Assembly (NCBI RefSeq): GCF_988243305.1 | Contig: NZ_OZ547136.1 | Strand: one strand, 5' to 3' | Length of the DNA: 64,000 bases | Shown here: positions 24,522 to 38,940 of the stretch, in pieces | How positions within the stretch are numbered: the first letter of the stretch is position 1 | Layout of the letters: each line of letters begins with the position of its first letter | The notes under the pieces: generated by a model | Database searches by the model: none | Seen by the model: the letters and a program-made list of their open reading frames with translations, nothing else | What the model was told of the DNA's origin: nothing | Translations under genes and position numbers: made by a program

Positions 24522-25479
24522 ATGACAAACTTCACAACCAGCACGCCGCATGACGCATTATTTAAATCCTTTCTCACGCACCCTGACACCGCGCGGGATT
24601 TTATGGAGATCCACTTACCCAAAGATTTACGTGAACTGTGCGATCTCGACAGCTTAAAACTGGAATCCGCAAGCTTCGTCGATGAAAAATTGCGGGCGCT
24701 ACACTCCGATATTCTGTGGTCGGTAAAGACCCGTGAAGGTGATGGTTATATTTACGTAGTGATTGAACATCAGAGCCGCGAGGATATCCATATGGCCTTT
24801 CGCCTGATGCGATATTCCATGGCGGTGATGCAGCGCCATATCGAGCATGATAAACGCCGGCCGCTACCGCTGGTCATCCCGATGCTGTTTTATCACGGTA
24901 GCCGTAGTCCTTATCCCTGGTCTTTGTGCTGGCTGGACGAATTTGCCGACCCGACTACTGCACGGAAGCTTTATACTGCAGCGTTCCCGCTGGTGGATGT
25001 CACTGTCGTGCCGGACGACGAGATTGTGCAGCACCGCAAAGTCGCCCTGTTGGAGTTGATCCAAAAGCATATTCGCCAGCGCGATCTAATGGGACTTACT
25101 TGATCAACTGGCAGTATTACTGGTTACAGGGTGCGCTAATGACAGCCAGATAACCGCGCTGTTAAATTACATTTTACTGACTGGCGATGAAGCGCGTTTT
25201 AAAGAGTTTATCAGCGAACTAACCAGTCGAATGCCACAACAAAGGGAGCGAATAATGACGATTGCAGAGCGAATTCATAATGATGGATGGCTGTTGGGAA
25301 GGGAGAGGGGGAGGAAAGAAGGGAAAGTAGAAGGGGAACGGAGCCTCCTCCGATTGTTGTTGCAGAATGGGGCCGATCCTGAATGGATACAACGATATAC
25401 CGGACTTTCGGCAGAGCAAATGCAGGCATTAGATCAGCCCTTGCCTGAAAGCAAGCGTGATCCATGGATCGAGTACTAA
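24522..25479 (+). pseudogene. rpnD: Rpn-family recombination-promoting nuclease, frameshifted (equivalent of yjiP/yjiQ)
   Basis: N-terminal part in frame 24522..25103 ([29 protein letters not shown]...), C-terminal part continues in another frame to 25479 (...[37 protein letters not shown]...[11 protein letters not shown]...); frame change localised to about 25084-25103. Confidence 0.75.
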
Positions 25480-28328: not shown

Positions 28329-31300
28329 TTATGTTGGCAAAGCAATTTTCCCCGTGAGCATATCAAACATCAGATAAGCAAAGCCCTTTGCCCGAACTGG
28401 ATCGGATAAATATTGCAACATAAATTCTTGCCGAGCGTCATTACTGTCCATTACAGCATTATCAACTGCCTGGAGGAAATCACCAAGAATCGCTTGTTCT
28501 GGCGGATTGTTTTTAATTTGTGTCATAACATTTTCATTTTCAGTTATTTTGTTATACACCGAAAAAGCATTGCTGATCATATCTTTCTCGGTCAAATGGT
28601 CGCTAATGAATAATTCATTCATCCGAGAAAGCACCTGCGATAAAAATTCCTCTTTTTTATCTTTCGCTTTTGCCGTACCAATATCATTACTTGCATCCAG
28701 CGTATAGTCAGGCGTTTCTTCCTGTAAACGTAAATCTTGCTCATGGATTTTCGATAAACGATAGTGACTCATCTCTACATTACTGAGATCAATTTCATCC
28801 TCTTCCAGACGTTGCTCATGCAGCAGCGGACGCAGATGACGGGCAAACAGGCTTAGCTTTTCCAGATCTTTGTCATCGTATTCGACGATCTGCGACATAA
28901 ATTCGTAAAAGCGAACAAAGCTGCCGAGATCTTTTTTGAATATTTCCAGACGATCTTTTTCCTGCTTACAGGCTTTAAAACTGTTTTCCGCATTAGTGAT
29001 TAACACCGTATCGCCCGTTTTTTTGGTGCGCTCGAACATCTCTTTGGCGGTCAGATAAGCGTCTATCGCCATCAGATAACGCTTTTTCCAGCGTTCTACC
29101 GCCGGTTTGCATATATTACTGATCGCTGCATTCGATTTATTTTTGATGAAGAATGCCTCGCAGAACTGCTCGACTTCATGCCACTGAAAGATCTGCGTGG
29201 CGCGCAGTTTTTCAAACAGATCGAAAACCTGCTGCGGATCGCTGACATCGGTCAGTTCCGCCGTCTGGAAATAGGGCTGGAACGCGCCGAGGATCTCGTC
29301 CGGATCGTTATAAAAATCGAGAACAAAAGTGCCTGATTCCGCTTTGCCCGGATAGGTGCGATTCAGGCGGGAGAGCGTCTGCACGCACTCGACGCCGCCG
29401 AGGGCTTTATCCACGTACATCGCGCACAGTTTCGGCTGGTCAAAACCGGTCTGGAATTTATTGGCGACCAACATGACCTGATAATCATCGCTGTCGAAGG
29501 CTTTGCGCATATCCCGCCCTTTCAGGCCGGGGTTCATGTTTATTTCAGTAAATTTCTGGTTTAACAATGCCAGGCTGTTATGGTCGCCTTCCTGGAATTC
29601 AACTTCCCCGGAAAACGCCACCATCGCGCTGATTTTCTGGTAATTGTTCTCGCTAATGTATTTATCAAACGCCAGCTTGTAGCGTACAGCGGCTTTGCGT
29701 GAACTGGTGACCACCATCGCTTTAGCCTGGCCGCCAAGCAGGTGCATCACATGTTTGCGGAAGTGCTCCACAATCACCTTCACCTTCTGCGAGATATTGT
29801 GGTCGTGCAGTGTCACCCACTGGTTGAGCTTAATCTTCGCCCGTTTGCTATCGACTTCGCGGTCTTTGTCTTCCAGCTTTTGCAGCAACTGATACGCCAC
29901 TTTGTAGTTGGTGTAGTTTTTCAGCACGTCGAGGATAAAGCCTTCTTCGATTGCCTGGCGCATGGAGTAGACGTGGAAGGCCTCAGGTTTATTGGTTTTT
30001 GACGCCGGTTCATCGGGACGTGGACGGCGACCAAAAAGTTCGAGGGTTTTGGATTTTGGCGTGGCGGTAAAGGCGTAGTAGTTCAGGTTACTGCTGCCTT
30101 TCCGGGCGGCAATGGTCGCATCCAGAATATCTTCTGACGACAGCACCACGTCATTATCCATTTCTTCGCTCATCAGCACTTCTTTAAGCTGACGGGCGGT
30201 GGAACCGCTCTGCGAGGAGTGCGCTTCGTCGGCAATCACCGCATATTTACGCTGCTTCAGGCTGACGCTGTTTTCGATTGCTTTCAGTACGAATGGGAAC
30301 GTCTGGATGGTGACAATAATGATCGGCTGCGAGTTTTCCAGCGCGCTGGCCAGCTTTTCCGATTTGGAGCCGTCGCCCTCTTTGTTATTGATGCGCCCGA
30401 CCACGCCGTCGGCGTGTTCGAACTGCCAGATGGTGTCCTGAAGCTGGTCGTCCAGCACCGTGCGGTCCGTCACCACGATAATGGAGTGGAACTGTTTTTC
30501 CCCGTTCACGTCGTACAGACGAGAAAGCTGGTGGGCGGTCCAGGCAATGGAGTTCGATTTACCGGAACCGGCGCTGTGCTGGATCAGGTATTTATGGCCG
30601 GTTCCTTCAATCGTCGCGGCCTCCAGCAGTTTGTTGACCACATCCCACTGATGATAACGCGGGAAAATCAGGCTCTCTTTCTTCGCTTTCAGCCCGTTCC
30701 ACTCCTCTTTTTCTTCAATATGCAAATGGACAAAACTGGCGAGGATTTTTAATAAGTTGTCCGGCAGCAGCACTTCATTCCACAGATAATCTGTGGCGTA
30801 GCGGTGGGTATCTTCGGGGATCTCGTTGCCTGCGCCGCCGTCTTTGGTGCCTTTGTTAAACGGCAGGAAGAAGGTGCTGTCACCCGCGAGTTTGGTGGTC
30901 ATAAAGACGTCATACTGGCTGACGGCAAAATGCACCAGCGCGCCGCGCTTAAAGGTCAGCAGCGGTTCCGGTTTATTGGTGGCGGGATCTTTCGGCAGGC
31001 GGGTCTTTTTGTACTGCGCAATGGCGTTCTGCACCGCCTGTTTGAATTCGGATTTCAGCTCCAGCGTGGCAATTGGCAGGCCGTTGATAAACAGCACCAG
31101 GTCGATGCGCCATTTTTTGGCTTTCACGCCCGTTTCTGCAAAGACGCTATTTGAGGCATACGGGCTGTAGACCAGTTCCGGCACGATACGGCAGATATTC
31201 TGCTGATAGCGCGCCAGCGTTTCCGGGTTGAGATTATGTTCCGGTTTAAACTGACACAGCGAAAAACGGGCATTGCGGATTTTCAGTCCGTGGCGAAGTA

Positions 31301-31592
31301 CGCCGAGCGTACCCCAGGTGCGCGACTGGATGTCGGTGGCGTTGCTGTCGGCTTTTTTTAACTGCGCAACCAGCGCGTCGAGGAAATGGCGCTCGGTGTC
31401 GTTGGGGTAAACGCGGGCGAATTTCTCCCACTCCTGTGGTTGGGTGATTTGTACAAAGAGCAGGGCGTCTTGTGCGTATAGCGCACGTTCACGATCGTAG
31501 CCGTCGCCTTTGCCGACAATCCAGCCTTTTGCTGCCATCTGCGCGATGATGTCGTTTTGTAGGTTGACCTCTTTTGCAATGTCGTTGCTCAT
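28329..31592 (-). CDS. hsdR: Type I restriction enzyme R subunit
   Basis: 1087-aa ORF; N-terminal PD-(D/E)xK-type nuclease region (IDLVLFINGLPIATLELK), SF2 helicase Walker A (HSAGSGKSNS) and DEAH box (IADEAHSS); start overlaps hsdS stop (ATGA). Confidence 0.88.
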   Translation of the reverse strand: MSNDIAKEVNLQNDIIAQMAAKGWIVGKGDGYDRERALYAQDALLFVQITQPQEWEKFARVYPNDTERHFLDALVAQLKKADSNATDIQSRTWGTLGVLRHGLKIRNARFSLCQFKPEHNLNPETLARYQQNICRIVPELVYSPYASNSVFAETGVKAKKWRIDLVLFINGLPIATLELKSEFKQAVQNAIAQYKKTRLPKDPATNKPEPLLTFKRGALVHFAVSQYDVFMTTKLAGDSTFFLPFNKGTKDGGAGNEIPEDTHRYATDYLWNEVLLPDNLLKILASFVHLHIEEKEEWNGLKAKKESLIFPRYHQWDVVNKLLEAATIEGTGHKYLIQHSAGSGKSNSIAWTAHQLSRLYDVNGEKQFHSIIVVTDRTVLDDQLQDTIWQFEHADGVVGRINNKEGDGSKSEKLASALENSQPIIIVTIQTFPFVLKAIENSVSLKQRKYAVIADEAHSSQSGSTARQLKEVLMSEEMDNDVVLSSEDILDATIAARKGSSNLNYYAFTATPKSKTLELFGRRPRPDEPASKTNKPEAFHVYSMRQAIEEGFILDVLKNYTNYKVAYQLLQKLEDKDREVDSKRAKIKLNQWVTLHDHNISQKVKVIVEHFRKHVMHLLGGQAKAMVVTSSRKAAVRYKLAFDKYISENNYQKISAMVAFSGEVEFQEGDHNSLALLNQKFTEINMNPGLKGRDMRKAFDSDDYQVMLVANKFQTGFDQPKLCAMYVDKALGGVECVQTLSRLNRTYPGKAESGTFVLDFYNDPDEILGAFQPYFQTAELTDVSDPQQVFDLFEKLRATQIFQWHEVEQFCEAFFIKNKSNAAISNICKPAVERWKKRYLMAIDAYLTAKEMFERTKKTGDTVLITNAENSFKACKQEKDRLEIFKKDLGSFVRFYEFMSQIVEYDDKDLEKLSLFARHLRPLLHEQRLEEDEIDLSNVEMSHYRLSKIHEQDLRLQEETPDYTLDASNDIGTAKAKDKKEEFLSQVLSRMNELFISDHLTEKDMISNAFSVYNKITENENVMTQIKNNPPEQAILGDFLQAVDNAVMDSNDARQEFMLQYLSDPVRAKGFAYLMFDMLTGKIALPT

Positions 31593-32992
31593 GCGCTGGC
31601 CTCCGTGGGTGTTTCTGCTTTGGGGATGGGGGCGGTCCAGTTGCGTAGGTCGATTTTTCCGGTGACGGCAGCGGAGATAAGGGCGGTGCGGCGTTCCTGG
31701 ATTAGCATTATTGCTTGATTGGTTTTAAATATTATGAGATCAATTTGTGCGCATTTTTCATTCAAGGCGTTGACGATTGATTGTGCTTCACCCAATGGGG
31801 GAAATATAAACTTGGTTGTTTTAAAGTCACCTAATGAAACTCTTTTTCTTGTTCCCTCAATACTAATGTTATTAATGGTTTGTCGCCCAAAATTTGAGTT
31901 CAATAGATATGCTATGAAATGTGCATTGAAGGTTTTTTTATTAACTCTTACTCTCATAACATCTTGCGTTATGACAGCATCTGGTTCATTTTTAGGATAA
32001 ACGCACGCTTCTCCTGGGGGATCTCCGACTTTTGAAAAAATCACATCATTTGAGGATAATTTACATATTTCAAGCTGTTGGGCTTTTTGATGAGTAACAT
32101 ATACAGTACTTTTTCTGTTATAACCTGTCGCTTTTATATCTCGAATGTATACGACAGGTACCCCTTCTTCTTTCAATTCACTTGCTAGTAAATCACTTCC
32201 AAATGGCCCATTTACGAAGCATCCTTTAGTTTCATCACCAGTATTGGCTAATTTACTCTTAAACCAGTGGGAGGGTGCTTCGCCTAATCCTGTTAAACCA
32301 GAATCTTTCATCGGCACATCAGGATTTAGCCCTTTGGTCACCGCATGGCTAATCACTGCCTGACGTTTTTCTTTAAGTAGTTCAATGAGTTGTTGTTGTT
32401 TCTCGATCAGGTCATCGATTTTTGCTGTTTCATGATCAAGGAAAAGTGCAATCTTAGAAGATTCATCATTACGAGGTTTTGGGCATTGTATATCGCCTAA
32501 AAGTTCAAGGTTTAAACCGTCTCGTAAATCACCGCCAGCCATGTTACGTATATTCTGATAATTAGAAATGAGCCACCAAAATATATAGCGAGATTGATTC
32601 TTTTTATACAATACAATGGCCGCCATGGATTGGTTACAAGTGGTATTAATACCAAGTTGTGCAACCATACCTTTGGTTTTTCCCTGCCCAGCTAAAGCGA
32701 CAACAAGTGCCCCTTTTGGTATCCACTTGGCACTACTATTTTCAAGTGCAGCGTTAGATATATATGTGGATGGCTCGACTATATAACCTTGATTTACTGC
32801 TCCAGAACTAATCCAGGGAACTGTACCATTCTCCCAATAATCAATAACATTTTTGGAGGGAGTTCCTCCTGCAAAAATATTGGATAGCCACCTCAGCTTA
32901 GTTTTTTTCCAGTTTAGTGGTAATTCATTACACCACTCCATCCCAGAATCCCTATACTCCGGATACGCCTGATATTTATTTAACCCCGCCAT
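31589..32992 (-). CDS. hsdS: Type I restriction-modification specificity subunit (two target-recognition domains)
   Basis: 467-aa ORF between hsdM and hsdR with overlapping stop/start codons on both sides; two-TRD architecture with central and C-terminal conserved helices, as expected for HsdS. Confidence 0.8.
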   Translation of the reverse strand: MAGLNKYQAYPEYRDSGMEWCNELPLNWKKTKLRWLSNIFAGGTPSKNVIDYWENGTVPWISSGAVNQGYIVEPSTYISNAALENSSAKWIPKGALVVALAGQGKTKGMVAQLGINTTCNQSMAAIVLYKKNQSRYIFWWLISNYQNIRNMAGGDLRDGLNLELLGDIQCPKPRNDESSKIALFLDHETAKIDDLIEKQQQLIELLKEKRQAVISHAVTKGLNPDVPMKDSGLTGLGEAPSHWFKSKLANTGDETKGCFVNGPFGSDLLASELKEEGVPVVYIRDIKATGYNRKSTVYVTHQKAQQLEICKLSSNDVIFSKVGDPPGEACVYPKNEPDAVITQDVMRVRVNKKTFNAHFIAYLLNSNFGRQTINNISIEGTRKRVSLGDFKTTKFIFPPLGEAQSIVNALNEKCAQIDLIIFKTNQAIMLIQERRTALISAAVTGKIDLRNWTAPIPKAETPTEASA

Positions 32993-35337
32993 CAGGAATG
33001 TACCTCCTGCAACAGTTTCATAATCTCAGCGCTTACCGCATCCAAATCAGCATCAATCTCCTCCAACGGTCGCGGCGGTGTATAAACATAAAAATGACGA
33101 TTAAACGGAATTTCATACCCCACAATCCCGATATCCCCATCTTTCGCATCGCGTTTATCGGCATTGATCCACGCATCCGCAACATGCGGCAATACTTCCG
33201 CTTTGAAGTAATCCTCGATCAACTCGTTGGTAGATACCGCCGGATTTAACGGCACATTCTCGTTATCACGCAGGTCGCCATCCGATTCAAACTCCACAAC
33301 CTTTCCGTGGTACTCAAACGCGCCGTACAGCGGTTGGGGCGCTTCTTTCAGAACCTTGCTGATTACCGGCTCGGCGTCCGGGTTTTTGCGGGTGATAGCA
33401 TCGATAAACTGCTTGTTCTCTTTCGCATCCAGCTTCACGCCTGCGGTTCTGAGCGCCTCTTTCAGCGTCAACTGGAACTGATTAAAGTCATTGCTAACAG
33501 TCTCTTTGCCACCCGCCAGCATCCTCATCGCTGCCTGAATACGCCGCGCTTTTTCCATTAACCCGCGCTGGGCCAGCCATAATTTGCTGTCGAGCAGATC
33601 TTTAATTTGCTTCTCTTTCAGCTCGCTAAAATCGGCTTTAAGAATGGCGCGGGCTTCACTTTCTACCGCTGTTAAGTCGCCGTAATTACCGTCCTGCCAC
33701 TGGAAAGCAAAGGCGTCATACAGTTGCGCCATCGGCGCGTTAAACGGCTTCGGCGCAAAGCGCAATGTGGCAATGGCGTCATCACTTATCTGAGCCGACA
33801 GGCGTAACGGGCGCTCAACGGTGATGCGACGATAGCCAAACTCGGTGCTGTGAAAGACTTTGCTGGCAAAGGTTTTTGCCGCCTCGGTTTTGGTTGTTGC
33901 GGGCTGGCGTCCCCGGCTGGATTTTTGTTCGGGTGCTTTCTCCAGGCCTAACGCCGCAAGCGTAGTGGTGGCAACGGGTTCGAAATCGCCAAACGTGCGG
34001 GTGATTAAACCAATATCCTCCTCCCCGAGAATATTACGTTTTGATCCCAGCGATTTACGCATCTTTCCGCACAGGTTGCTGCCGTCGATTAGCTGGACTT
34101 TACCTTTGCGTTCTGGCGCTTTTTTGTTAGACAGCACCCAAACATAGGTAGCGATACCGGTGTTGTAAAACATATCGGTGGGCAGGGCGATAATGCCTTC
34201 CAGCAAATCCGCTTCCAGAATGTAGCGGCGGATCTCGCTTTCACCGCTGCCTGCGCCGCCGGTGAATAACGGCGAACCATTAAGAATGATGCCGATCCGT
34301 CCGCCACCGCTTTTGGCATCGCGCATTTTGCTGATCAGATGCAGCAGAAACAGCAACGAACCGTCGGAGACTCGGGGCAGGCCGGGGCCAAAGCGACCAT
34401 CAGCACCTTTGAGTTTGTGCTCGTTGTTGATGTCGGTTTCTATCTTTTTCCAGTCCACGCCGAAAGGTGGATTAGAGAGCATGTAATCGAATTTTTCTGC
34501 GGGGAGCTGATCGTTGGAAAGGGTGTTGCCGAGTTTGATAAGGCTGACATCCTGGCCCTTAATCAGCATGTCGGCTTTGCAGATGGCGTAGGATTCCGGG
34601 TTTAACTCCTGACCAAACGCGCGCATCACGGCATTGGGGTTTTGTTTGTGGACGTACTCCATGCCGGAGGAGAGAAAGCCGCCGGTTCCCGCCGTTGGGT
34701 CGTAAATGGTGCGAATGATACCGTCTTTATTGAGTGCATCATCATCATCGAAAAACACCAGCGAGGTGGTCAGATTGACGATATCACGCGGGGTAAAGTG
34801 CTCCCCGGCGGTTTCGTTAGAACTCTCGGCAAAACGTCGGATCAGCTCCTCAAATACCAGCCCCATATCGTGGTTGGTGACGTGCTCCGGGTATAAATCT
34901 GCTTTAGCGAATATTTGCACCACTTTGAACAGTAAGTTTGCATCCGCCAGCTGTCCGACAAACTCGCTGAACTTGAAGTGTTCGAAAATTTCGCGGGCAT
35001 CCGAAGAGAACGACTGGATGTAGTTTTCCAGGTTGTCCTGTATGCCATTTTGCCCCATTTTGCTGAGATCCATCGCTGAGGCATTGAAGAACGTGAGGCC
35101 ATTAGTCGCCCGCAGGATCATTTTCTCCTGGGCTTCCTCCGGCAGTTTCATGGCTTTTACTTTTTGCGCCTCGGTAATGACCGCGTCTTTCGTTGTTTCG
35201 AGTACGCATTCCAGACGACGCAAAAGGGTAAAAGGAAGAATAATTCGTCCATATTGTGATTGTTTAAAATCGCCGCGTAACAGGTCGGCGACAGACCACA
35301 GGAAGGCTGCAATCTGGCTGAAATTAGTTGATGACAT
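32992..35337 (-). CDS. hsdM: Type I restriction-modification N6-adenine DNA methyltransferase subunit (long form)
   Basis: About 781 aa from the ATG at 35337 (AGGA 9-12 nt upstream; an in-frame ATG also exists at 35346); SAM-binding ([10 protein letters not shown]) and catalytic NPPF motifs; long C-terminal extension. Confidence 0.88.
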
Positions 35338-35621
35338 AAAAAGCATTCCTTGCCCTGAAAAAGAGGGGGATATTCAATGTGAAGTGAATGCTTTGTTATA
35401 TCAAACTATTGCTGTGATGATCAAAAACACGATCATTTTCAATACGTTATAAATATGAATTGGAAATATTAATTGTTCTAATGAATGCGTGTTGAGGTGT
35501 TTCTTAATATATTTTGATTTATCCTGGAATGGTATTTTTGCAGAAACAAAGACGCTAACTTTTATTTTTTATTCGCAGCATAATGACGCCGTTTGCCAGT
35601 GCAATTTGACAGGAGTCATTC

Positions 35622-37721
35622 ATGAAAGCCACCGAAGCCCGATTACTCGATTTTCTAAAACGCTCTCAGCAATTCGTTATTCCCATTTATCAGCGTACTT
35701 ATTCATGGTCAGAGGAACAGTGCCGCCAGCTCTGGGACGATGTAATACGTGCCGGGCAGCGTGATGATATCCCGGCGCATTTTATCGGCTCGGTGGTGTA
35801 TATCGAACAGGGCCTATATCAGGTTTCGGGGATCTCTCCCTTACTGGTGATTGACGGTCAGCAACGCCTGACAACGGCGATGTTATTGCTGGAAGCGTTG
35901 TCCAGACACCTTGGCGATGACGAGGTGATGGATGGTTTCTCCGCCATGAAATTACGAAACTATTATCTGCTCAATCCGTATGAATCGGGCGAGCGTGGAT
36001 TTAAGTTACTGCTTACGCAAACGGACAGAGAGAGCCTGCTGGCATTGATTAGACAAAAACCGCTGGCAGAAAATTGCTCTCTACGCGTGAAAGAGAATTT
36101 TGAGTTTTTCCATGAGCAAATAGGCAAACTCCACGGCAATTTCACCGCGTTATGTCAGGGCCTTTCCAAACTGCTGATTGTGGATGTCGCCTTGAATCGC
36201 GGTCAGGATAATCCGCAACTAATCTTTGAAAGCATGAACTCAACAGGAAAAGCGCTGAGTCAGGCGGATCTAGTACGCAACTATGTTCTGATGGGGCTGG
36301 AGCCAGAACATCAAAGCCAACTGTACGACGATTACTGGCGGCCCATGGAGCTGGCGTTTGGTCAGAAGGGATACACTGACTATTTCGACAGTTTTATGCG
36401 TAATTACCTGACGGTAAAAACAGGTGAGATTCCGCGAATTGGTGATGTCTATGAAGCCTTTAAACGCTATGCGCGAAAACCTGGCGTAATAGATAGCGGG
36501 ATGGAGGCGCTGGTTGCGGATATTCGTACCTATGCGGATTATTTTTGTGCGATGGCGCTGGATAGCGAAAAAGACAAAATATTAAAGATGGCGTTTCAGG
36601 ATCTACGTGAGCTGAAAGTCGATGCCGCCTGGCCGTTCCTGTTGGTGCTTTATCACGACTATAAACAGGGAATTCTTTCTGCCGCGGATTTTTTAAGTGC
36701 CACGCGTTTAATTGAGTCGTATATCTTCCGGCGCGCAGTCTGTGCCATTCCCACTAACTCATTTACTAAAACCTTCGCCACGTTTTACAAAGTGCTGGAT
36801 AAAGAGCGTTATCTGGAGAGCATTGCGGCACATTTGCTGGAACTGCCTTCCTACCGTCGTTTCCCGGATGATGATGAATTTCAACGTGAACTGAAAACTC
36901 GCGACCTCTACAACTTCCGTAATCGCAGCTATTGGCTACGTAGATTTGAAAACCACGATCGTAAAGAACGGGCCTATGTTGACACTTATACGATTGAACA
37001 TATCATGCCGCAGAACCCTAATTTATCGGCGAAGTGGCGCGATGACCTTGGTCCGGAATGGAAGCGAATCCATAAAAAGTGGCTCCATACGTTGGGTAAT
37101 TTAACGTTAACTGGCTATAACTCAAGCTACAGCGACCGTCCATTTGCGAAGAAGCGAGATATAAAAGGTGGCTTTAAGGAAAGTCCATTACGCCTGAACA
37201 CGGGGTTAGGGCAATGTGAAATATGGGATCGTGCAGCGATACAAAAGAGAGCGGAACGTCTGTCCGAGCTGGCAATAGACGTCTGGGCGATCCCCAAACT
37301 TTCGGAAGACGTGTTGGCTCGTTATCGCACCGTCGTTGAACGAGGAACGGGATATGTCCTTGCTGATTTCCCGCAACTTGAAGAAGGTACGCACATCCGC
37401 GTACTTTTTGACAGCCTTTCTGATGCCGTTATGACGCTGGACGCTGGGGTTACGCGAGAAATATTGAAGCTCTATGTTGCCTTCAAAGCGGAGACGAATT
37501 TTGTTGATGTGGTGCCGCAAAAAAGTCGCTTACGTTTATCACTAAATATGCCATTCCATGAACTGGTTGACCCAAAATGTATGGCTAAAGATGTCACAGA
37601 TATAGGCCGTTGGGGCAATGGCGATGTTGAAATAGGTTTCAGCGATCTTTCTGAGCTTCCTTATGTGATGGGATTAATTCGTCAGGCATTTGAAAAGCAG
37701 ATGGATAACGCGATGGTTTAA
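35622..37721 (+). CDS. GmrSD-like DUF262/DUF1524 protein (putative modification-dependent Type IV restriction endonuclease, BrxU/SspE-like)
   Basis: 699-aa ORF; N-terminal DUF262/ParB-like NTPase motifs (IPIYQRTYSW...VIDGQQRLTT); central His-Me/HNH-like DUF1524 region (YTIEHIMPQNPN...W...HTLGNLTL); AGGAG Shine-Dalgarno; divergent from hsdM. Confidence 0.8.
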   Translation: MKATEARLLDFLKRSQQFVIPIYQRTYSWSEEQCRQLWDDVIRAGQRDDIPAHFIGSVVYIEQGLYQVSGISPLLVIDGQQRLTTAMLLLEALSRHLGDDEVMDGFSAMKLRNYYLLNPYESGERGFKLLLTQTDRESLLALIRQKPLAENCSLRVKENFEFFHEQIGKLHGNFTALCQGLSKLLIVDVALNRGQDNPQLIFESMNSTGKALSQADLVRNYVLMGLEPEHQSQLYDDYWRPMELAFGQKGYTDYFDSFMRNYLTVKTGEIPRIGDVYEAFKRYARKPGVIDSGMEALVADIRTYADYFCAMALDSEKDKILKMAFQDLRELKVDAAWPFLLVLYHDYKQGILSAADFLSATRLIESYIFRRAVCAIPTNSFTKTFATFYKVLDKERYLESIAAHLLELPSYRRFPDDDEFQRELKTRDLYNFRNRSYWLRRFENHDRKERAYVDTYTIEHIMPQNPNLSAKWRDDLGPEWKRIHKKWLHTLGNLTLTGYNSSYSDRPFAKKRDIKGGFKESPLRLNTGLGQCEIWDRAAIQKRAERLSELAIDVWAIPKLSEDVLARYRTVVERGTGYVLADFPQLEEGTHIRVLFDSLSDAVMTLDAGVTREILKLYVAFKAETNFVDVVPQKSRLRLSLNMPFHELVDPKCMAKDVTDIGRWGNGDVEIGFSDLSELPYVMGLIRQAFEKQMDNAMV

Positions 37722-37764: not shown

Positions 37765-38499
37765 ATGACAACCAAACTACTGGACCTGAGCTGGAATGCA
37801 AATGCCATCCCGGCGATGCAAATTGTCGGTACGCGCGCGGCCTTGTTTACCTTCAAAACGCATATGGCAGGGTTTGTCTGGGATGCCGCGCAACTGGAAA
37901 ATAACCCCTATACCTTTGTTGAAGTTAAAACGCTGCTCGATGGCGTCACCGTTGGCGGGCATAAGGTCAGTGATACTGAGCAGGTGTTGAACCTGGCAGA
38001 TAGCGCAAAAAAACTGATTGAACTTGTGCAATCCGGGCGTTTCGATCTTGATAAGAAAACGTTCACGTTGCTTAACGGCATTATTGCGCGTAATGAGGCG
38101 CTGGAGTGGGGCGTTTTTCGCGGCGAAGGTGATGAGTTACATTACAATGCGCGCGTTCACCTCGGCGAGTTGGGCACCCATTTCCCACCAGCCACAGAAG
38201 CAGGTGCACCTGAACTGAATCGAATATTCGCCGCAGGTGTGGCACAAATAAAAGAGATGCCACCGTTCGAAGGGGCGCTGGCAATGTTTTTATTTGGTGC
38301 TTATTTTCAGTTTTTCTTTGATGGCAACAAGCGTACCAGTCGCCATATGATGAACGGCTGGTTAATGCGCCACGGTTACAATCCCATTAGTGTACCCGCA
38401 GCTCGTGCGCTGGAGTTCAACAGCAAAATGGTGCGCTTTTATCACAGCAAAGATGCCAGTGAAATGATGGCATTTTTGGTGGATTGCTATCAGGTTTGA
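37765..38499 (+). CDS. Fic/Doc-like protein with non-canonical active-site motif (Q-x-F-x-DGNKR)
   Basis: 244-aa ORF; segment AMFLFGAYFQFFFDGNKRTSRHMMNGWLMRHGYNPISV matches the Fic/Doc core (HxFx(D/E)GN(G/K)RxxR ... LL.RHGY.P) except that His is replaced (Gln/Phe); starts 44 nt after the GmrSD-like gene with AAGGA Shine-Dalgarno. Confidence 0.6.
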   Translation: MTTKLLDLSWNANAIPAMQIVGTRAALFTFKTHMAGFVWDAAQLENNPYTFVEVKTLLDGVTVGGHKVSDTEQVLNLADSAKKLIELVQSGRFDLDKKTFTLLNGIIARNEALEWGVFRGEGDELHYNARVHLGELGTHFPPATEAGAPELNRIFAAGVAQIKEMPPFEGALAMFLFGAYFQFFFDGNKRTSRHMMNGWLMRHGYNPISVPAARALEFNSKMVRFYHSKDASEMMAFLVDCYQV

Positions 38500-38637
38500 A
38501 TAAGTGCTGGATGGTGTCCCAATGCTGCCATCCAGCCCCTTCATATCAACTTCCCTATCTTTTCCTAAAACGTGATGCTATTTCCAACATTCGAATCATC
38601 AGTGCACGAAAAGCAGATCGTAAAGAGAGGAATCGCT

Positions 38638-38940
38638 ATGAGCATGGTTAAACATAAACGAGGGACCTCCTCTACACTCGATGTGCAGCATGAGGCCGAA
38701 TTGAAGGCGCTGGCGAATAAATTCGACGAAGAGATTGATTACAGCGATATCCCACCTTCCAGCGATGAGCAATGGTCTAACGCAGAACGCGGTAAGTTTT
38801 ATCGGCCATTGAAAACCCAGGCTTCGGTGCGTATTGATGCTGATGTGATGGAATGGCTGAAGCGACCTGGTAAAGGCTATCAAACTCGCCTGAACGCAAT
38901 TTTACGTGAAGCGATGCTGCGCGATCAGAACAAAAAATAA
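38638..38940 (+). CDS. BrnA-like (COG3514) ribbon-helix-helix antitoxin-family protein
   Basis: 100-aa product from the ATG at 38638 (AGAGAGG Shine-Dalgarno); C-terminal RIDADVMEWLKRPGKGYQTRLNAILREAM resembles the BrnA antitoxin signature; no BrnT-like (DUF497) partner ORF adjacent. Confidence 0.65.
   Translation: MSMVKHKRGTSSTLDVQHEAELKALANKFDEEIDYSDIPPSSDEQWSNAERGKFYRPLKTQASVRIDADVMEWLKRPGKGYQTRLNAILREAMLRDQNKK

Follow-up and report, generated by a model that had tools for sequence, protein, structure and literature searches.

The stretch analysed here, called the window below, is 64,000 nucleotides (nt) of contig NZ_OZ547136.1 (assembly GCF_988243305.1), and its minus strand carries three long open reading frames, 32992..35346, 31589..32992 and 28329..31592, with translations of 784, 467 and 1087 amino acids (aa), which form the hsdM-hsdS-hsdR operon of a Type I restriction-modification system. 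These are genuine genes and not chance open reading frames. The first, hsdM (32992..35337 from the start codon preferred below, 781 aa), contains the Pfam families HsdM_N (6.7e-27) and N6_Mtase (7.7e-58), and the PADLOC MTase_I profile PDLC03029 matches it from end to end (residues 5-783 of the 784-aa translation, E=8.5e-281). The second, hsdS (31589..32992, 467 aa), has two stretches of Methylase_S and a PADLOC Specificity_I match at 2.2e-116, and the third, hsdR (28329..31592), contains HSDR_N, SWI2_SNF2, ResIII and T1R_D3-like domains, is matched by TIGR00348 at 1.1e-52, and has the length of 1087 aa given in the original prediction for this locus. Separate genes for HsdM (M), HsdS (S) and HsdR (R) are recognised by Pfam, NCBIfam and PADLOC and are named as such in the RefSeq annotation; the object is an intact three-gene Type I system, ordinary and already annotated.

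The genes are arranged in the order hsdM-hsdS-hsdR with overlapping codons at both junctions, as had been predicted from the TGATG and ATGA motifs and as can be read directly in the sequence. The hsdM stop and the hsdS start have one base in common (tcc-TGATG-gcg), with GGAGG 8 nt upstream, and the hsdS stop and the hsdR start overlap in gcgc-ATGA-gc, again with GGAGG upstream. For hsdM itself, the first ATG (35346) is directly abutted by AAGGA (35351-35347), which leaves no usable Shine-Dalgarno spacing, and the second (35337) has the same AAGGA 9 nt before it; RefSeq uses this second start, giving a 781-aa form, in near-identical E. coli. Because Shine-Dalgarno spacing and the RefSeq start both favour the ATG at 35337, as the original prediction had also preferred (~780 aa), we took 781 aa as the length of HsdM, and residue numbers refer to this form unless the 784-aa translation is named.

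The overlaps and their Shine-Dalgarno sequences support a putative translational coupling along the whole operon. Transcription would start upstream of hsdM, presumably from a promoter in the AT-rich intergenic region (35338..35621, GC 0.445-0.474) that separates it from a divergent gmrSD gene, and the overlaps would then link the translation of S with that of M and the translation of R with that of S. Coupling of hsdM and hsdS has been described in EcoKI (PMC3510504). With hsdR in this family coupled to hsdS and not set apart, the question arises of how the operon holds restriction back on entering an unmodified host. A consensus scan gave 7 promoter-like sites, fewer than the 13.3 expected from shuffles, and says nothing firm. 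Between 24 and 40.5 kb of the window, we found no phase-variation tandem repeats, shufflon-type inverted repeats or Rfam families.

HsdR possesses the PD-(D/E)xK nuclease domain and the ATP-dependent SF2 motor of a Type I restriction subunit. Its nuclease motif D164..E178-x-K180 (31053-31109, minus strand, as are all the gene and protein features of the operon) and the helicase motifs GSGKS (30555-30578), DEAH (30213-30230), FTATP (30054-30071) and QTLSRLNR (29358-29381) are invariant in five HsdR proteins down to 38% identity; identity between the protein of the window and its relatives is 84-85% for the Klebsiella-type protein and 38-43% for the distant ones. By the mechanism of EcoKI and EcoR124I, an R2M2S1 complex on an unmethylated target would translocate DNA with ATP hydrolysis and cut it far from the site. 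The C-terminal region of HsdR (residues 775-1087, 28332-29270) belongs to no Pfam family, and a search of Pfam with the last 311 aa at E values up to 10 returned only noise. The last 80 residues of HsdR (1003-1082, 28332-28574) weakly match the C-terminal end of the PADLOC candidate PDC-S15 (E 1.1e-6).

An alignment of six HsdS proteins resolved three conserved blocks with two variable blocks between them. In the window, these are an N-terminal conserved region (residues 1-28, 32909-32992), a first target-recognition domain (TRD1, residues 29-169, 32486-32908), a central conserved region (residues 170-243, 32264-32485), a second target-recognition domain (TRD2, residues 244-396, 31805-32263) and a C-terminal conserved region (residues 397-467, 31592-31804), so that two variable domains are separated by conserved helical regions, and GC falls to 0.40-0.41 over the variable ones. 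The same operon occurs in E. coli strains with either one or both TRD blocks replaced and the conserved frame kept; in strain A37 both are replaced, and its TRD2 is common to another of the variants compared. The matches to the operon among E. coli genomes fall into coverage classes of 100, 91, 85 and 82%, in one, two or three aligned pieces, which is what TRD replacement predicts. On the sequences compared, the target-recognition domains of HsdS are exchanged among E. coli strains, in line with the original proposal that two TRDs set the specificity. By the EcoKI and EcoR124I mechanism, M2S1 would methylate the two adenines in a bipartite target that TRD1 and TRD2 determine. Deriving how far apart the methylated adenines lie from helix length in HsdS, whose helices align with those of EcoKI without gaps, was considered and rejected, such a rule not being transferable between families.

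The N-terminal 460 residues of HsdM are built like solved Type I HsdM proteins. A helical domain (residues 9-143, 34909..35313; Pfam HsdM_N, helical in the AlphaFold2 model) is followed by the catalytic domain (residues 155-455, 33973..34875; Pfam N6_Mtase), which aligns to EcoKI HsdM 121-409 and includes the S-adenosylmethionine (SAM) motif DPTAGTGGF (residues 213-221, 34675-34701) and motif IV, NPPF (residues 289-292, 34462-34473). The positions of both motifs are invariant in 20 aligned relatives, and the protein is a gamma-class N6-adenine methyltransferase with both motifs intact. With Foldseek, this part of the model superposes on the solved HsdM structures 7vs4, 3lkd, 3khk, 2y7c and 7bst with E values of 1e-22 to 1e-12. 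On the 784-aa translation, the Pfam matches are HsdM_N and N6_Mtase; they end at residue 458, and no family is found beyond.

The remainder of HsdM was dissected with the same 20-sequence alignment, the occupancy and identity of each segment being calculated over the 12 relatives below 60% identity. Residues 456-495 (33853..33972) form a basic disordered linker (occupancy 0.25, identity 0.08, isoelectric point 10.2), which has a predicted local distance difference test score (pLDDT) of 37-56 in both the tail and the full-length models, is a gap in most of the distant sequences and is specific to the enterobacterial and gammaproteobacterial branch. It is followed by a folded C-terminal module of about 285 aa (residues 496-781, 32995..33852) in four pieces: a beta element with an FGYRR..ERPLR motif (residues 496-516, 33790-33852; occupancy 1.00, identity 0.58) in which F500, G501, R509 and P510 are invariant; a variable helical bundle (residues 517-648, 33394-33789; 0.65, 0.15), which is shortened in members of 644-684 aa; a beta/alpha subdomain with the motifs D.dLRD.EnVPL and DAWI (residues 649-754, 33076-33393; 0.81, 0.42); and a terminal amphipathic helix (residues 755-781, 32995-33075; 0.99, 0.44). 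The beta element and the terminal helix are as conserved as the catalytic domain (0.99, 0.52). AlphaFold2 models the tail, from a 102-sequence alignment, with a mean pLDDT of 90.9, the linker alone being disordered, and the full-length protein with a mean of 86.4. A search of Pfam with the tail at E values up to 10 gave only noise, and a sequence search of the PDB gave no matches, the module having no solved structural relative. The domain analysis proposed earlier for this region has in this way led to a folded module outside Pfam and outside the solved structures.

In profile alignment, HsdM residues 151-452 stand opposite residues 121-409 of the 529 in EcoKI HsdM, and the alignment ends there, so the tail replaces the C-terminal region of about 120 residues in EcoKI. 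The long C-terminal extension of the original prediction is therefore present, but the net excess is about 210 aa and not 280, EcoKI having about 120 aa of its own after the core. A better view of it is that of an insertion, with the catalytic domain on one side and a conserved terminal helix on the other. The role of the module is probably structural. In this structural role, the terminal helix (755-781) would most likely pack on the HsdS coiled coil, like the C-terminal tail of HsdM in solved M2S1 complexes, with the beta element and the beta/alpha subdomain as a family-specific scaffold and the helical bundle and the basic linker as variable spacers.

The system is widespread. Of 5,426 complete E. 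coli genomes, 116 have a match to the 7-kb operon; in 114 of them (~2%) the match covers at least 80% at 95-99% DNA identity and lies in every case on the chromosome, with Type I R, S and M annotated. For about 2% of sequenced E. coli, the operon represents one more barrier to incoming DNA, as an already annotated defence system. HsdM proteins identical after rounding occur on 223 contigs, and among the best 120 matches, orthologues of 780-787 aa with at least 80% identity are spread over Enterobacterales (Salmonella salamae, Citrobacter, Klebsiella, Enterobacter, Serratia, Yersinia, Pantoea and Xenorhabdus) and reach Vibrio. When the C-terminal 326 residues of HsdM were compared with 1.84 billion representative sequences, 2,353 clusters (50% identity) were found at E values up to 1e-3; their full-length members are HsdM proteins of 644-799 aa, from sources that include Rheinheimera, Pseudomonas, Streptomyces and a candidate-phylum genome. 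The tail of about 285 residues, predicted as folded with confidence and absent from domain libraries and solved structures, belongs to an HsdM family that is very common. The description of this HsdM as unusually long does not stand: the family is widespread and annotated, PADLOC has a profile of its own for it, and because several further MTase_I profiles in PADLOC span 650-930 positions, an HsdM of such length is no exception. Three relatives, P0031 (1021 aa), P0124 (1148 aa) and P0135 (1130 aa), have a long HsdM and part of HsdS in one polypeptide; these are either natural fusions or frameshift artefacts at the one-base overlap.

The architecture is conserved with the protein. All eight loci in which hsdR can be seen have the order M-S-R and an HsdR of 1005-1144 aa with the same Pfam make-up; two other contigs end before hsdR and stand outside this count. 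The count of eight includes the window, and the arrangement is also seen in a Klebsiella pneumoniae locus (L007) with identical 1-base and 4-base overlaps; E. coli UTME-7 (NZ_CP169029.1, 2676-18498; M 786, S 440 and R 1082 aa, with a DNA identity of 78% to the window); two metagenome contigs whose HsdM has 654 aa and a further metagenome contig; a forest-soil contig; a Streptomyces locus; and a Pseudomonadaceae locus in which a SLFN_AlbA_2/HATPase_c_4 gene (L005, 12766-14409) is inserted between hsdS and hsdR. Two further distant members also carry extra defence-type genes or domains, one having an HsdR with a fused SLFN_AlbA_2 domain (L018, 3397-6831) and the other an Abi_2 gene after hsdM (L017, 9467-10396). 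The UTME-7 copy, which is of Klebsiella type, lies outside the immigration control region, between McrBC-like genes and a gene for a 1274-aa reverse transcriptase together with an integrase, and because of this setting we conclude that the cassette also travels on an integrative island. In the K. pneumoniae locus, M-S-R is followed by McrBC, and standard models give its HsdR poor scores. From K. pneumoniae NUH66, an active "Type I-like" HsdM-HsdS pair beside McrBC has been reported, for which DefenseFinder found no HsdR (PMC12456054, 2025); this pair and the Klebsiella long-HsdM member may be the same system with its hsdR overlooked.

In the window, the operon lies between yjiR/yjiS and gmrSD-fic-brnA-yjiA, at the place where K-12 has mcrBC-hsdSMR-mrr, and it is flanked by E. 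coli core genes of about 98% identity. In strain M7424 the annotation runs from yjiR and yjiS through a hypothetical protein, the Type I subunits R, S and M, a protein with a GmrSD domain and one of the Fic family to a BrnA antitoxin and yjiA, and within the same anchors K-12 has yjiT, yjiV, mcrCB, symE/symR, hsdS, hsdM, hsdR and mrr. The region is the immigration control region, a variable defence island that extends from yjiS to yjiA (PMC3874165, PMC12707154), and the operon occupies the same hotspot as the K-12 hsd genes, as the original prediction had it.

The defining criterion of a Type I family is in vivo complementation of subunits (PMC2481252, PMC12707154), and identity of M and R is usually above 70-90% within a family and 17-33% between families (PMC2481252, PMC10030836). 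Compared with EcoKI of Type IA, the system of the window shows 28% identity in HsdM over 260 aa of the catalytic domain, 23% in HsdR over 411 aa and 21% in HsdS, with another gene order. For Type IB (EcoAI/EcoEI), the reference was the CFT073 system, which is 99% identical to EcoAI (PMC2481252); its subunits reach at most 25-31%, with HsdM at 25% over 306 aa and HsdR aligning over 81 aa only. The EcoR124 chains in the PDB, representing Type IC, give weak and partial matches (HsdM E 2.5e-25 over 153-460 only, HsdR E 8e-11 over 65 residues only), with a Foldseek identity of 20-24% for HsdM. These identities are far under the within-family level, and therefore the system is not IA (EcoKI/EcoBI), IB or IC; the prediction of a family other than that of K-12 holds, the subunits being neither of Type IA nor of its standard lengths.

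Taken together, these results make it very probable that the window contains an intact Type I system, expressed as one unit, of a widespread long-HsdM family that is distinct from IA, IB and IC and is located in the immigration control region. Several points weigh against this. The restriction-modification activity is a predicted one. The sigma-70 consensus scan gave no match upstream of hsdM (35338..35621), and a weak promoter-like site (31830-31803, minus strand) lies within hsdS, some 210 nt ahead of hsdR, so that a separate hsdR promoter is conceivable. The NCBIfam models for hsdM and hsdR, TIGR00348 among them, score under their curated cut-offs, although this shows distance from the classical families and not loss of function. 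Finally, the terminal helix of HsdM is a putative HsdS anchor by analogy, and the profile alignment to EcoKI, ending at residue 452, stops short of it.

Among named families, the one to be weighed first is Type IE, whose prototype is KpnBI of K. pneumoniae. Type IE systems methylate adenines 7 bp apart, and Type ID systems adenines 6 bp apart. The orthologous operon in K. pneumoniae (M 786, S 453 and R 1082 aa) shares the same 1-base and 4-base overlaps, its HsdM and HsdR being 82 and 84% identical to ours, and KpnBI, as Chin et al. reportedly described it in 2004, combines an hsdM of unusual length, overlapping hsdS by one base, with an identity of 25-33% to IA-ID. The KpnBI hsdM is, however, said to measure 2631 bp (876 aa), as against 2346 bp in the window and 2361 bp (786 aa) in the Klebsiella gene considered here; the other PADLOC MTase_I profiles, of 810-932 positions, match our HsdM over its first ~450 residues only, and KpnBI could belong to one of these. 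No protein named KpnBI occurs among the HsdM cluster members, the source names all being generic. The one-base overlap of hsdM and hsdS was considered as a diagnostic of KpnBI and rejected, since the EcoKI genes also overlap. We regard membership in Type IE as possible though doubtful.

A further alternative concerns the HsdM tail and not the system as a whole, namely that the C-terminal module is a separate functional domain, perhaps one that docks or regulates HsdR, clamps DNA or senses anti-restriction proteins. Such a role would be in keeping with the size of the module (~285 aa), its confident fold without a relative among solved structures, the conservation of some of its parts at the level of the active-site domain, the basic linker that precedes it, and its constant co-occurrence with a long HsdR whose C-terminal ~310 aa are also without a Pfam family. 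Yet no catalytic or ligand-binding motif was recognised in the module, the helical bundle, which is its largest part, shows little conservation and is shorter in the members of 644-684 aa, as fits a spacer better than a sensor, and the lengths of HsdM and HsdR are uncorrelated in the few loci examined (654/1067, 682/1076, 758/1019, 781/1087 and 799/1005). We consider this alternative rather unlikely, and that the beta element and the beta/alpha subdomain make up, with the terminal helix, a new functional domain defining the family's way of working, in more than 2,000 clusters from several phyla, seems less likely again. If it were true, the module could be a platform that recruits or gates the C-terminal region of HsdR, by which an operon without a separate hsdR promoter could delay restriction after transfer to a new host.

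The evidence on Type ID (StySBLI, EcoR9I, KpnAI) points both ways. A 2025 review places only IA, IB and ID in the immigration control region, together with GmrSD (12%) and brnAT (PMC12707154), and both gmrSD and brnA adjoin the operon here; moreover, Staphylococcus xylosus operons with the order hsdMSR group with StySBLI (PMC10030836). Against this, StySENI of S. Enteritidis shares the StySBLI recognition sequence (PMC2490747), and the 120 best HsdM matches, all of at least 80% identity, include no protein of S. enterica subsp. enterica and only one of subsp. salamae, on 3 contigs, which is an indirect argument. On balance, assignment to Type ID appears improbable.

The neighbouring genes lie on the plus strand. 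The GmrSD-type gene (35622-37721), transcribed divergently from hsdM across the AT-rich spacer of 285 bp, encodes a 699-aa Type IV enzyme (GmrSD_N, GmrSD_C) with an extra C-terminal DUF5655, and in strain A37 it is interrupted by an IS4 element. It is followed by a gene for a weak Fic-family protein of 244 aa (37765-38499), with a Pfam score just under the cut-off, and by a BrnA antitoxin gene (38572-38940); because there is no space for a BrnT toxin gene between fic and brnA, BrnA looks orphaned or otherwise partnered. On the other side of the operon, an Rpn-family (rpnD-like) gene (24522-25478) has a 1-nt insertion at 25099 relative to M7424, resulting in a frameshift after about 193 codons, and the rpnD-like copy of K-12 is likewise a pseudogene.

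Compared with M7424, hsdM differs by 25 nt and 2 aa, hsdS by 6 nt and 2 aa and hsdR by 78 nt and 15 aa, and no frame is broken. That the operon is a decaying or methylase-only remnant with inactive restriction is very improbable: disrupted Type I systems are common (PMC3874165) and the neighbouring rpn gene is frameshifted, but all three frames are full length relative to their orthologues, all catalytic motifs are intact, the differences from M7424 are mostly synonymous, and TRDs are being exchanged in the population, which is expected only under selection for specificity. We see no reason in the sequence to consider the system inactive.

Among known systems, the solved structures that come closest to the N-terminal and catalytic domains of HsdM are the M1M2S complex of PacII (7vru/7vs4; phmmer E 2.9e-30) and the S. 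thermophilus HsdM (3lkd; E 1.7e-26), with Foldseek E values of 1e-22 and template-modelling (TM) scores of 0.65-0.73 on the target. They differ from our protein in having about 470-500 residues, with 21-24% identity and nothing that matches residues 496-754. EcoR124I has the gene order hsdM-hsdS-hsdR found here and an HsdR of similar size (1038 aa), but it is plasmid-borne, with an HsdM of 520 aa, and Type IC hsdR has its own promoter whereas here hsdR overlaps hsdS. The EcoAI-type system of CFT073 occupies the same hotspot and also adjoins a GmrSD-type gene; it differs in its order R-M-S and in its shorter subunits (HsdM 489 aa, HsdR 810 aa). EcoKI differs in the order R-M-S with hsdR set apart by a 200-bp gap, as opposed to M-S-R with overlapping hsdS and hsdR, and in its HsdM of 529 aa, close to the ~530 aa that accompanied the K-12 order hsdR-hsdM-hsdS in the original prediction, its HsdR of 1170 aa and the lack of a counterpart to the C-terminal module. 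In other respects EcoKI resembles the system of the window: the three subunits follow the same domain logic in the same yjiS-yjiA hotspot; hsdM and hsdS overlap in K-12 also, where they are translationally coupled (PMC3510504), and because of this the overlap is not distinctive; and two TRDs are likewise present in its HsdS, with conserved coiled-coil regions of equal length, the alignment being free of gaps across both helices.

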